This document shows, piece by piece, positions 1 through 4,011 of a stretch of 4,011 nt of DNA. Under the pieces are notes generated by a model. That model searched no databases, was not told the DNA's origin, and saw nothing but the letters and a program-made list of their open reading frames with translations. Position 1 is the first letter of the stretch. The number at the start of each line of letters is the position of its first letter. The DNA comes from a virus. Lineage: Duplodnaviria > Heunggongvirae > Uroviricota > Caudoviricetes. A program made the translations under genes and the position numbers. Location of the stretch: the IMG/VR virus record IMGVR_UViG_2698536379_000010, one strand, 5' to 3'.

Positions 1-79
1 CATATTCGCCCTGACTTTCCAGAACCATACGAACTGCCCGTTGACGGACCTCGGGGGAAAAACGTGTATTTTTAGTCAT
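1..79 (-). CDS. IS3-family transposase OrfA (helix-turn-helix N-terminal protein), N-terminal 26 codons; truncated by window edge
   Basis: ATG at 79..77 on the - strand, preceded by AGAGG with ~8 nt spacing. Translation is MTKNTRFSPEVRQRAVRMVLESQGEY, open to the window edge. The other two frames on this strand segment are not relevant; the sense (+) frames 1 and 3 are closed by stops. Confidence 0.85.
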   Translation of the reverse strand, partial: MTKNTRFSPEVRQRAVRMVLESQGEY

Positions 80-108
80 CCTGTTTACCTCTTTCTCAGG
101 GAGTTTAG

Positions 109-133
109 TCTCCAGGATTCCCGGGGCGGTTCA
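109..133 (-). repeat. Terminal inverted repeat (left IR) of the IS3-family element; extent approximate
   Basis: The terminal ~25 nt on the - strand are TGAACCGCCCCGGGAATCCTGGAGA, beginning with the TG dinucleotide typical of IS3-family ends. The inner boundary cannot be set without the other end, which is outside the window. Confidence 0.55.
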
Positions 134-547
134 ATAAAAGGGATTGGCAGTGTACTGGGATTTGATCTCAGCAGCCTTTCCCTGAATGCCAATGGGGGGA
201 TTTATCAGTCTGCTGATTTGAGTCGTTACAGTGGCACGGTGGTTAACCGTCCGACGTTTTTTGCTTTTGCAAAAGGCGCGGGTGTGATGGGGGAAGCGGG
301 ACCTGAAGCCATTCTGCCATTGCGTCGTGGTGCTGACGGTAAGCTGGGGGTTGTGGCGGATATTGGGGGTTCAGGTATGGCGATGTTTTCCCCGCAGTAC
401 AACATCGAGATCAATAACGATGGCACGAACGGGCAGATAGGTCCGGCTGCCCTGAAGGCGGTTTATGACCTCGGGAAAAAAGCGGCAGCGGACTTTATGC
501 AACAGCAGGCCCGTGATGGTGGTCGGTTAAGTGGAGCATATCGGTAA
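134..547 (+). pseudogene. H: Tail tape measure protein (lambda gpH-like), 3'-terminal fragment (137 codons) of a gene interrupted by the IS insertion
   Basis: Frame 2 is open from the IS junction to TAA at 545..547. The C-terminus ...NIEINNDGTNGQIGPAALKAVYDLGKKAAADFMQQQARDGGRLSGAYR resembles the lambda gpH C-terminus as I recall it (...INNDGTNGQIGPAALKAVYD...RDGG...). Its stop overlaps the M start (TAATG). The upstream part of the track ORF (41..133) is antisense IS sequence, not H. Confidence 0.8.
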
Positions 548-876
548 TGGAGACGTTTCACTGGAAAGTGCGCCCGGATATGAATGTGGTATCAGAGCCG
601 AAAGTGGTGACAGTGAAGCTGGGCGATGGTTATGAACAGCGTCGTGCGGCGGGACTGAATAACCAGTTGTCGACTTACAGCGTGACGATACGTGTTCGTA
701 AATGTGAACACCCATCTTTAAAAGCCTTTCTGGAACGGCACGGTGGCGTCCGTGCATTTCAGTGGACGCCACCTTATGACTGGAAACCGATCAGGGTGGT
801 TTGTCGTAAATGGTCGGCAAGCGTGGGGGCGCTGTGGGTAACCATAACGGCAGATTTTGAACAGGTCGTGGCATAG
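547..876 (+). CDS. M: Tail tip assembly protein M (lambda gpM homolog), 109 aa
   Basis: ATG at 547 overlaps the H stop (TAATG), with GGAG about 10 nt upstream. Length is identical to lambda gpM (109 aa) and it sits between H and L. Motifs GDGY, TYSV, WTPPY and the C-terminal FEQVV match my recollection of gpM. Confidence 0.9.
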   Translation: METFHWKVRPDMNVVSEPKVVTVKLGDGYEQRRAAGLNNQLSTYSVTIRVRKCEHPSLKAFLERHGGVRAFQWTPPYDWKPIRVVCRKWSASVGALWVTITADFEQVVA

Positions 877-880
877 GAGG
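875..880 (+). promoter_or_regulatory. Shine-Dalgarno sequence (AGGAGG) for gene L
   Basis: AGGAGG lies 5 nt upstream of the ATG at 886 and overlaps the M stop codon TAG (874..876). Confidence 0.6.
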
Positions 881-885
881 CTCTG

Positions 886-1584
886 ATGCAGGATATTCCA
901 CAGGAAACACATCATGAGACGACACGCCTCACTCAGTCAGCCCAGGCGGTGCTCTGGGAAATCGATCTGACAGAGGTCGGTGGTGAACGTTATTTTTTCT
1001 GTAATGAGCAGAACGAAAAAGGTGAGCCGGTTACCTGGCAGGGGCGGCAGTATCAGGCATACCCCATTCAGGGGACGGGATTTGAACTGAACGGCAAGGG
1101 CAGTGCTGCCCGTCCGACACTGACGGTTTCTAACCTGCACGGCATGGTCACGGGGATGGCGGAAGACCTGCAGAGTCTGGTCGGCGGAACGGTGGTCCGG
1201 CGTAAGGTTTACGCCCGTTTTCTGGATGCGGTGAACTTCGTCAACGGAAACAGCGACGCCGATCCGGAGCAGGAGGTGATCAGCCGCTGGCGCATCGAGC
1301 AGTGCAGCGAACTGAGTGCGGTGAGTGCCTCCTTTGTACTGTCCACGCCAACGGAAACGGATGGCGCTGTTTTTCCGGGACGTATCATGCTGGCCAACAC
1401 CTGCACCTGGACCTATCGCGGTGATGAGTGCGGTTATCACGGTCCGGCAGTCGCGGATGAATATGACCAGCCGACGTCCGATATCACGAAGGATAAATGC
1501 AGCAAATGCCTGAGTGGCTGTAAGTTTCGCAATAACCTCGGCAACTTTGGCGGCTTCCTTTCCATTAACAAACTTTCACAGTGA
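886..1584 (+). CDS. L: Tail tip protein L (lambda gpL homolog), 232 aa, with a Cys-rich C-terminal region
   Basis: ATG at 886 after a strong ribosome-binding site. Length of 232 aa equals lambda gpL, with conserved position between M and K. Five clustered cysteines lie in the C-terminal ~60 residues (ANTC, DEC, DKC, SKC, SGC). The stop TGA (1582..1584) overlaps the K start. Confidence 0.92.
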   Translation: MQDIPQETHHETTRLTQSAQAVLWEIDLTEVGGERYFFCNEQNEKGEPVTWQGRQYQAYPIQGTGFELNGKGSAARPTLTVSNLHGMVTGMAEDLQSLVGGTVVRRKVYARFLDAVNFVNGNSDADPEQEVISRWRIEQCSELSAVSASFVLSTPTETDGAVFPGRIMLANTCTWTYRGDECGYHGPAVADEYDQPTSDITKDKCSKCLSGCKFRNNLGNFGGFLSINKLSQ

Positions 1585-2333
1585 ATCCCATGACAGAGAC
1601 AGAATCAGCGATTCTGGCGCACGCCCGGCGATGTGCGCCAGCGGAGTCGTGCGGCTTCGTGGTGAGAACGCCGGAAGGGGAAAGATATTTTCCCTGCGTG
1701 AATATCTCCGGTGAGCCGGAGGCGTATTTCCGGATGTCGCCGGAGTACTGGCTGCGGGCAGAGATGCAGGGTGAGATTGTGGCGCTGGTCCACAGCCACC
1801 CCGGTGGTCTGCCCTGGCTGAGTGAGGCCGACCGGCGGCTGCAGGTGCAGAGTGATTTGCCGTGGTGGCTGGTCTGCCGGGGAGTGATTCATAAGTTCCG
1901 CTGTGTGCCGCATCTTACCGGGCGGCGCTTTGAGCACGGGGTGACGGACTGTTACACGCTGTTCCGGGATGCTTACCATCTGGCGGGGATTGAGATGCCG
2001 GATTTTCATCGCGAGGATGACTGGTGGCGTAACGGTCAGAATCTCTATCTGGATAATCTGGAGGCCACAGGGCTGTATCAGGTGCCGTTGTCAGCGGCGC
2101 AGCCGGGCGATGTACTGCTGTGCTGTTTTGGTTCATCGGTGCCGAATCATGCCGCCATTTACTGTGGTGACGGCGAGCTGCTGCACCATATTCCTGAACA
2201 ACTGAGCAAACGAGAGAGGTATACCGACAAATGGCAGCGACGCACACACTCCCTCTGGCGTCACCGGGCATGGCACGCATCTGCCTTTACGGGGATTTAC
2301 AACGATTTGGCCGCCGCATCGACCTTCGTGTAA
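1581..2333 (+). CDS. K: Tail tip assembly protein K (lambda gpK homolog) with N-terminal JAB/MPN metalloprotease domain and C-terminal NlpC/P60-like domain; start codon uncertain (GTG 1581, ATG 1590 or internal ATG 1734)
   Basis: The frame is open from GTG 1581 (overlapping the L stop as GTGA) to TAA 2331..2333, and the first ATG is at 1590. The JAB/MPN motif H-S-H-P-x6-S-x2-D (HSHPGGLPWLSEAD, nt 1791..1832) and an upstream E-x-C-G (AESCGFVV, Glu at 1644..1646) are present. Cys (1950..1952) and two downstream His residues are arranged as in NlpC/P60 enzymes. Confidence 0.9.
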   Translation: MNPMTETESAILAHARRCAPAESCGFVVRTPEGERYFPCVNISGEPEAYFRMSPEYWLRAEMQGEIVALVHSHPGGLPWLSEADRRLQVQSDLPWWLVCRGVIHKFRCVPHLTGRRFEHGVTDCYTLFRDAYHLAGIEMPDFHREDDWWRNGQNLYLDNLEATGLYQVPLSAAQPGDVLLCCFGSSVPNHAAIYCGDGELLHHIPEQLSKRERYTDKWQRRTHSLWRHRAWHASAFTGIYNDLAAASTFV

Positions 2334-2878
2334 AAACGGGGGCCGAAGCCATCCGGGCGCTGGCCATGCAGATCCCGGCGTTTCGTCAGAAGCTGAGCGA
2401 CGGCTGGTATCAGGTACGGATTGCCGGGCGTGATACAGGTGAAAATGAATTATCATCCCGTCTTAATGAGCCGCTGGCAAATGGTGCAGTGATCCACATC
2501 GTGCCGCGCCTGGCGGGTGCCAAAAGTGGCGGTGTGTTTCAGGCAGTGCTGGGTGCGGCGCTGATTGCGGTGGCATGGTGGAACCCTGTGGGCTGGCTGG
2601 GGGCCGCGGCTGTATCGGGTATGTATGCAGCAGGGGCCAGTATGATCCTGGGTGGTGTGGCGCAGATGCTGGCACCGAAAGCCAGAACTCCCCGTACACA
2701 GACAACGGATAACGGTAAGCAGAACACCTATTTCTCCTCACTGGATAATATGGTTGCCCAGGGCAATGTTCTGCCTGTTCTGTACGGTGAAATGCGCGTG
2801 GGGTCACGTGTTGTCTCTCAGGAGATCAGCACGGCAGACGAGGGGGACGGTGGTCAGGTTGTGGTGATTGGTCGTTGA
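2231..2878 (+). CDS. I: Tail tip assembly protein I (lambda gpI homolog), 215 aa; N-terminal ubiquitin-like/beta-grasp region followed by a Gly/Ala-rich hydrophobic segment
   Basis: ATG at 2231 is the first start codon after an in-frame TGA at 2195..2197, with GAGAGAGG 11 nt upstream. It overlaps the K 3' end by 103 nt in a different frame, which is the arrangement I recall for lambda K/I. The stop is TGA at 2876..2878. Confidence 0.88.
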   Translation: MAATHTLPLASPGMARICLYGDLQRFGRRIDLRVKTGAEAIRALAMQIPAFRQKLSDGWYQVRIAGRDTGENELSSRLNEPLANGAVIHIVPRLAGAKSGGVFQAVLGAALIAVAWWNPVGWLGAAAVSGMYAAGASMILGGVAQMLAPKARTPRTQTTDNGKQNTYFSSLDNMVAQGNVLPVLYGEMRVGSRVVSQEISTADEGDGGQVVVIGR

Positions 2879-2896
2879 TGAAAAACGTTTTATGTG

Positions 2897-2926
2897 AAAC
2901 CGCCTCAGGGCGGTTTTGTCGTTTCT
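2897..2926 (+). terminator. Stem-loop with T-rich tail in the I-J intergenic spacer (possible weak intrinsic terminator or RNA stability element)
   Basis: AAACCGCC (2897..2904), loop TCAG, then GGCGGTTT (2909..2916) form a perfect 8-bp stem, followed by TGTCGTTTCT. It sits in the 60-nt gap between the I stop and the J start. Confidence 0.4.
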
Positions 2927-2938
2927 GGAGCGTGAGGA

Positions 2939-4011
2939 ATGGGTAAAGGCAGCAGTAAGGGGCATACCCCGCGCGAAGCGAAGGACAACCTGAAATCATC
3001 CCAGATGCTGAGCGTGATAGACGCCATCAGCGAAGGACCGATTGAAGGTCCGGTGGATGGATTAAAAAGCGTGCTGCTGAACAGTACGCCAGTGCTGGAC
3101 AGTGAAGGTAATACCAACATCTCCGGTGTCACGGTGGTGTTCCGGGCCGGTGAGCAGGAGCAGACACCGCCGGAGGGATTTGAATCCTCCGGTTCTGAGA
3201 CGGTGCTGGGTACGGAAGTGAAATACGACACGCCGATCACCCGCACCATCACGTCGGCAAACATCGATCGTCTGCGCTTTACTTTCGGTGTGCAGGCACT
3301 GCGGGAAACCACCTCAAAGGGGGACCGGGATCCGTCGGAAGTCCGCCTGCTGGTTCAGATACAGCGTAATGGTGGCTGGGTGACGGAAAAAGACATCACC
3401 ATTAAGGGCAAAACCACGTCGCAGTATCTGGCCTCGGTGGTGGTGGATAACCTGCCGCCGCGCCCGTTTAATATCCGGATGCGCAGGATGACGCCGGACA
3501 GCACCACAGACCAGCTGCAGAACAAAACGCTCTGGTCGTCATACACCGAAATCATCGATGTGAAACAGTGCTACCCGAACACGGCACTGGTTGGCGTGCA
3601 GGTGGACTCGGAGCAGTTTGGCAGTCAGCAGGTGAGCCGTAATTATCATCTTCGCGGGCGCATTCTGCAGGTGCCGTCAAACTATGATCCGGAAAAACGC
3701 ACTTACAGCGGCATCTGGGACGGAACGTTAAAACCGGCATACAGCAACAACATGGCCTGGTGTCTGTGGGATATGCTGACCCACCCGCGCTACGGCATGG
3801 GGAAACGTCTTGGTGCGGCGGATGTGGATAAATGGGCGCTGTATGTCATCGGCCAGTACTGCGACCAGTCAGTACCGGACGGCTTTGGCGGCACGGAGCC
3901 GCGCATCACCTGTAATGCGTACCTGACCACGCAGCGCAAGGCGTGGGATGTGCTCAGTGATTTCTGCTCGGCGATGCGCTGTATGCCGGTATGGAACGGG
4001 CAGACGCTGAC
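2939..4011 (+). CDS. J: Tail tip/central tail fiber protein J (lambda gpJ homolog), N-terminal 357 codons; continues beyond window end
   Basis: ATG at 2939 is preceded by GAGG (2934..2937). Frame 2 has no stop through to the window end, which is why it is absent from the ORF track. The translation MGKGSSKGHTPREAKDNLKSSQMLSVIDAISEGPIEGPVDGLKSVLLNSTPVLD... closely matches the lambda gpJ N-terminus as I recall it. Confidence 0.93.
   Translation, partial: MGKGSSKGHTPREAKDNLKSSQMLSVIDAISEGPIEGPVDGLKSVLLNSTPVLDSEGNTNISGVTVVFRAGEQEQTPPEGFESSGSETVLGTEVKYDTPITRTITSANIDRLRFTFGVQALRETTSKGDRDPSEVRLLVQIQRNGGWVTEKDITIKGKTTSQYLASVVVDNLPPRPFNIRMRRMTPDSTTDQLQNKTLWSSYTEIIDVKQCYPNTALVGVQVDSEQFGSQQVSRNYHLRGRILQVPSNYDPEKRTYSGIWDGTLKPAYSNNMAWCLWDMLTHPRYGMGKRLGAADVDKWALYVIGQYCDQSVPDGFGGTEPRITCNAYLTTQRKAWDVLSDFCSAMRCMPVWNGQTL

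Follow-up and report, generated by a model that had tools for sequence, protein, structure and literature searches.

A probable IS629/IS1203-type insertion in the tape-measure gene of an Sp3-like lambdoid prophage of Escherichia coli

The DNA analysed here, referred to as the window, is a stretch of 4,011 nt that makes up an entire draft contig (CYAE01000080.1, assembly GCA_001277435.1), the sequence upstream of base 1 being beyond what can be read. It very probably records the transposition of a 1310-bp element of the IS629/IS1203 type into the tail tape-measure gene H of an Sp3-like lambdoid prophage, with the element antisense to the gene, the trinucleotide ATA most likely duplicated at the target and the prophage tail-defective. 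The identity of the IS end, the exact junction, the colinearity of the adjoining sequence with an intact H and the intact state of genes M, L, K and I were observed directly. One end of the contig lies 133 nt into a multi-copy IS and the other within J, a repeated gene; breaks inside repeats are usual in short-read assemblies.

The features on the IS side of the junction and in the adjoining part of H are as follows, in window coordinates.

1-133, minus strand: left end (IRL side) of an IS3-family element of the IS629/IS1203 type, identical at 133/133 positions to 1310-bp copies
109-133, minus strand: left terminal inverted repeat, 5'-TGAACCGCCCCGGGAATCCTGGAGA, with a 22/25 match to the right end in the full copy L005
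88-92, minus strand: putative orfA ribosome-binding site AGAGG, 8 nt 5' of the ATG (79-77), as read from the sequence
1-79, minus strand: OrfA codons 1-26, MTKNTRFSPEVRQRAVRMVLESQGEY, from translation; the ORF runs off the contig
134-136, no strand assigned: ATA, codon 885 of H, the predicted downstream copy of a 3-bp target duplication, as suggested by the 3-bp duplications in related copies and the 885-aa product
134-547, plus strand: 3' fragment of H, codons 885-1021 and the stop, 100% colinear with the intact H of DEC5E; a gpHC-like C-terminal piece with the gpI-binding segment
41-547, plus strand: chimeric 168-aa ORF (CTT54486.1) that starts at a TTG within the IS; its first 31 codons are antisense IS sequence

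A search with positions 1-133 gave full-length matches of 100% identity to IS3-family elements in numerous E. coli chromosomes and plasmids (E = 2e-62); of the 5,782 records with a match, 772 showed at least 99% identity. All 133 positions also agree with one end of the complete 1310-bp element of the O145 strain RM9872 (L005, 1324-2633). This end is the variant of O145, O26, O111, O103 and O121 strains and of their plasmids, whereas the O157 copy labelled 'IS1203 family' agrees with it at 125/133 positions (94%). The boundary of the element is base 133, where the plus strand reads ...GGTTCA and the minus strand starts with the inverted repeat, and the junction string at 133/134 is GGTTCA/ATAAAAGG. 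Read on the minus strand from base 133 (TGAACCGCC...), the end has the form of a 5'-TG...CA-3' terminus, of which one end only is in the window; in the full copy from RM9872 both ends begin with 5'-TG and agree with each other at 22 of their first 25 positions. The first-pass annotation, made from the sequence alone, had placed at 1-133 the left end of an IS629/IS1203-like IS3-family element antisense to the tail genes, and this was borne out by the 133/133 identity and the OrfA translation. The terminal TG, the ribosome-binding site and the OrfA start were also found where it had put them, the exception being the second inverted repeat, which is outside the window.

The 26-codon OrfA N-terminus in the window is identical to that of the 108-aa OrfA in the RM9872 copy, in which OrfA overlaps an OrfB of 295 aa and a programmed frameshift has been annotated by RefSeq (PGAP). 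The OrfB protein scored 312 bits against the NCBIfam model transpos_IS3 (cut-off 160). The orfA/orfB architecture of the IS3 family, with a -1 frameshift and a DDE transposase, was found on the RM9872 copy, the window itself holding OrfA codons 1-26 only. Assignment to the IS629/IS1203 group was made by proxies, namely the RefSeq naming of the O157 copy, which is 94-95% identical and called 'IS3-like element IS1203 family transposase', and the published divergence of the IS629 sub-types, three of which have been described and which diverge by 4-5% (PMC3271280). Copies with an end identical to that in the window share with IS629/IS1203 of EHEC, EPEC and Shigella the terminus, the OrfA N-terminus, the length of 1310 bp, the frameshift layout and the 3-bp duplications. 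The location of the element in a prophage fits the preference of IS629 for prophages, in which 62% of the O157 copies are situated (PMC3271280).

On the other side of the junction, positions 134-4011 showed 100.0% identity to the Sp3-like lambdoid prophage in E. coli O55:H7 DEC5E, as compared with 99.9% for several other O55:H7 genomes, 99.1-99.3% for DEC5B/DEC5D and 98.2% for O157:H7 strains. The H gene of DEC5E is intact and 3066 nt long; base 134 corresponds to its nt 2653, with which codon 885 (ATA, Ile) begins, and the H frame continues from there to a stop codon at 545-547 that overlaps the start of M (TAATG). Tape-measure coding sequence had been claimed to resume at 134 in the frame of the H stop, as the colinearity with the DEC5E gene confirms; the intact tape measure had been expected to be about 850 aa long, and the gene instead encodes 1021 aa. 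In DEC5E the 1021 codons of H are intact and lie between T and M, the order of the tail genes in relatives being G, T, H, M, L, K, I and J. An intact 1021-aa H was also present in 10 of the 10 long contigs that were retrieved via the L protein.

The intact H homologue scored 284 bits against TIGR01541 (cut-off 104.75) and also matches PF06791, PF24622 and PF09718, with a Pfam layout of TMP_2 at residues 228-426, TMP_4 at 616-693 and Tape_meas_lam_C at 811-885. The TIGR01541 match, which covers H residues 656-981, is split by the insertion. The insertion codon, 885, coincides with the last residue of the Tape_meas_lam_C match. The chimeric ORF CTT54486.1 carries the GenBank product name 'putative tail length tape measure protein'. 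It is probably an annotation artefact, to judge from the sequence, because its first 31 codons are derived from the antisense strand of the IS; no Shine-Dalgarno motif was found in the sequence 5' of its TTG codon. Likewise, no credible translation start of its own was found for the C-terminal piece of H.

A chimeric assembly, in which reads from an IS were joined to the H fragment and the site itself carries no IS, would be compatible with a contig that ends in a multi-copy repeat and with the absence of the exact junction string from 5,426 complete E. coli genomes, from species-representative (GTDB) genomes and from viral contigs. However, the junction coincides exactly with the terminal base of the IS, an identical 4011-bp contig occurs in a second sample, and in independent assemblies produced by different software H is likewise broken at codon 885 despite flanks that are single-copy. 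We therefore consider an artefact of this kind extremely unlikely, and a genuine insertion in H remains the preferred reading.

Insertions of a similar element in H were found in five complete O157:H7-type genomes (3-5-1, 272, 08-3918, 27_141091 and ERL04-3476), all of them with an element of the 'IS1203 family' in the same orientation. The mapped sites are nt 2370-2372 of H in 3-5-1, with the target duplication GAG (L001, 3824-5133), and nt 2432-2434 in ERL04-3476, with the duplication GTA (L006, 1324-2633), while the remaining three lie at or near nt 2370-2372 as judged from the match span only. Annotation of H as two pseudogene fragments, together with a 3-bp duplication, was checked and found in 3-5-1 and ERL04-3476. 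These insertions share with the window the gene and the antisense orientation, but differ from it in site (2370-2372 and 2432-2434 versus 2653-2655), in IS variant and in prophage allele. The suggestion that three insertions in the same orientation within 285 bp reflect a regional preference was rejected as an ascertainment effect of the query design.

The occurrence of an IS in the same gene and orientation in five complete genomes raises the question of whether the window junction was derived from such an O157:H7 insertion, 221-285 bp further upstream in H, by a deletion adjacent to the IS. This was rejected as scarcely credible, since the IS variants differ, with 125/133 identical positions at the end and 95.5% identity overall between the O157 element and the RM9872 copy that matches the window. 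The flanking prophage allele points in the same direction, with 98.2% identity to the O157 type against 100% to the O55 type. The differences between the IS variants indicate that the insertion in the window is a separate event.

Target duplications of IS629 are 3-4 bp in size (PMC3271280), and the three related IS copies that were fully readable each had duplications of 3 bp, with GAG and GTA in the same gene H and GCT in RM9872. A duplication of ATA followed by the terminal TGA of the IS (...TCG ATA/TGA) would end H after exactly 885 residues. A protein corresponding exactly to H residues 1-885 is present in the public protein collection, for the O55-type allele in 14 Logan contigs and for the O157-type allele in 13 contigs, and a protein corresponding to residues 1-886 is absent from it. 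The O55-type product is recorded from Logan assemblies only, and the 885-aa matches come from assemblies other than that of the window; the O157-type 885-aa entries at NCBI share their product wording and accession series with the ORF deposited from the window. A nonsense change from AAA to TAA at codon 886 would give an identical 885-aa product. The proposal that ATA at 134-136 is one copy of a target duplication is thus supported indirectly, by the three related 3-bp duplications, the presence of the 885-aa product and the absence of an 886-aa product. For the genome of the window we infer the other IS end and the duplication, as well as the loss of function.

We also identified H proteins of 884 aa labelled 'partial' in 50 contigs for the O55 type and in 14 contigs for the O157 type. 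These pair with partial proteins of 136 aa that start at K886 and have neighbouring accessions within the same assemblies, as exemplified by EEZ7347542/EEZ7348276 and EFB7133783/EFB7134322, which indicates that independent assemblies break H at this codon. Boundaries between paralogues were rejected as a cause of the contig breaks because the 150-nt flanks on both sides of the site are single-copy in complete genomes, and an inserted repeat at the site is the best explanation. Viral contigs, metagenome contigs and species-representative (GTDB) genomes were scanned for the predicted upstream junction string without a match. H products of 86 aa and 109 aa with internal starts were considered as insertion markers and proved uninformative; they derive from frameshifted or deleted H genes and not from an IS.

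The partial proteins also bear on an IS-mediated rearrangement, in which the IS adjoins the 3' part of H and a deletion or inversion between IS copies has brought unrelated DNA to its other side, with the 5' part of H missing or located elsewhere. The upstream side falls outside the contig, which ends in the IS, and matching duplications are found at only 21/47 of the O157 IS629 sites (PMC3271280). Deletion-type decay is also known in this prophage, where the terminase is joined to the 3' end of H (L022) or the major tail gene to H (L028). Such an origin nevertheless appears quite unlikely, in that other assemblies hold both halves of H cut at the same codon, as the 884-aa and 136-aa partials, and the 885-aa product predicted by a simple insertion is present in other assemblies. 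A simple insertion of the element into H is the explanation that we prefer.

Downstream of H, the window contains the following tail genes.

547-876, plus strand: minor tail protein M, intact (PF05939, E = 1e-39)
886-1584, plus strand: minor tail protein L, intact (PF05100, E = 3e-99)
1590-2333, plus strand: tail protein K with JAB and NlpC/P60 domains, intact (PF14464, PF00877)
2231-2878, plus strand: tail assembly protein I, intact (PF06805)
2939-4011, plus strand: 5' part of tip attachment protein J, 357 codons, running off the contig (PF24801, FNIII-A_GpJ)

In relatives, J is 1137 aa long and the effector genes nleB2 and nleC are located just downstream. The long ORF for I overlaps the end of K by 103 nt (2231-2333), and the start of I has been annotated differently among genomes, giving a protein of 215 aa in the window and DEC5E and of 170 aa in Sakai. 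The 60 nt that separate the stop codon of I from the start of J contain a GC-rich hairpin at 2897-2917, AAACCGCC-TCAG-GGCGGTTT, which is followed by a T-rich tail. A 65-nt region at this hairpin has a folding energy of -20.7 kcal/mol (z = -2.35) and was not flagged by the terminator scan.

The insertion had also been suggested to be polar on M, L, K, I and J. Pattern scans for promoters and terminators in the window and the full IS yielded nothing above shuffle expectation, and sequence patterns thus give no support to an outward promoter, or to a terminator strong enough to cause polarity, in either of them. Late transcription in lambdoid phages is antiterminated by Q. A polar effect of the IS on M-J is doubtful: the scans predict no convincing terminator for transcription through the IS, and antitermination by Q should blunt any polarity, which leaves the case for it weak.

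To what extent the interruption of H would affect the tail can be judged from phage lambda. H shares with lambda gpH the matches to the models TIGR01541, TMP_2 and Tape_meas_lam_C, and differs from it in length, with 1021 aa as compared with 853 aa. The C-terminus of H aligns to gpH 619-851, with codon 885 opposite lambda V701. Within the 137-aa fragment encoded in the window, residues 66-135 align to lambda gpH 782-851 (8iyk, E = 1.7e-14) and residues 102-132 match the 32-residue gpH chain of PDB 9e7m. In the lambda tail tip, gpH 818-849 is bound to the hub protein gpI (PMC12617516), and the homologue of this segment is included in the C-terminal 136 aa of H that the insertion removes. An 885-aa H would thus be unable to dock on the tip initiator and no tails would therefore be formed; on these structural comparisons we infer, with good foundation, a loss of tail assembly, as the first-pass annotation had anticipated.

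After assembly of the lambda tail, gpH is cleaved into gpH* and a C-terminal piece of approximately 14 kDa, gpHC, at a site near the Gly-rich hydrophobic stretch 691-712; the exact site is not known, nor is it known whether the cleavage is essential in lambda (PMC12617516). The insertion codon, opposite V701, falls inside gpH 691-712 and near the gpH*/gpHC processing region. The piece of H that is lost is about the same size as lambda gpHC, as the cut made by the IS maps to V701 near the cleavage site. Unlike the processing of gpH in lambda, the split of H is genetic and precedes assembly, and the C-terminal piece is without an evident start of its own. The idea that a tape measure split in advance retains partial function is speculative.

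It is plausible, as had been proposed, that the prophage is defective. The gene for the prohead protease/capsid fusion has an internal stop or is split in DEC5E and in several O55:H7 relatives (L004, 1-172; L008 and L015, 1393-3420). The broken protease/capsid gene in these relatives suggests that the IS may not be the first lesion and that the prophage family was already decaying, and to call the prophage defective because of the IS may overstate the role of the element. Other routes of decay were also seen, with the final 86 codons of H immediately after the gene for terminase gpA in one contig (L022, 4481-6261) and a major tail gene fused to the 3' part of H in another (L028, 8175-10330).

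Taken as a sequence of events, the insertion would have occurred in a host close to E. coli O55:H7 DEC5E, by the copy-out-paste-in transposition via a circular intermediate that is attributed to the IS3 family. The element would have entered antisense to the tail operon, most likely with a duplication of the 3-bp target ATA at codon 885, and translation across the predicted upstream junction would terminate H after residue 885, at the terminal TGA of the IS. The truncated H would retain its length-determining body. Without the tip anchor, the tape measure would be unable to join the tip initiator and tail tubes would not be nucleated, which would make the prophage tail-defective unless H were supplied by another resident prophage.

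The break at codon 885 was found with two alleles of H, one of the O55:H7 type (P614/H655) and one of the O157:H7 type (T614/R655). A break in two alleles is explained equally well by one ancient insertion with later excision, by exchange between prophages through recombination or by independent insertions, and we consider it unlikely that ATA at codon 885 is a recurrent target of IS629 rather than the site of a single clonal event. Ten chimeric proteins predicted as edge partials (QDSRGGS versus QDFRGGS), which would have allowed typing of the IS variant, were searched for and none was present in the protein collection. IS629 is abundant in the O157/O55 clone complex (PMC3271280), and nothing evidently related was found in those parts of the literature on IS629 and the tape measure that were accessible.

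The finding itself represents known biology, namely a routine insertion of the IS629/IS1203 type that would inactivate a prophage tail gene, and it adds nothing new on mechanism. Insertion sites of IS629 are used to mark lineages of the O157/O55 clone complex, in the approach known as IS-printing, and the present site, found in none of 5,426 complete E. coli genomes yet recurrent in draft assemblies, could mark a sublineage. IS insertions in tail genes are a routine route to defective lambdoid prophages in these pathogens, and defects in the prophages affect the mobilisation of the effector genes that they carry.
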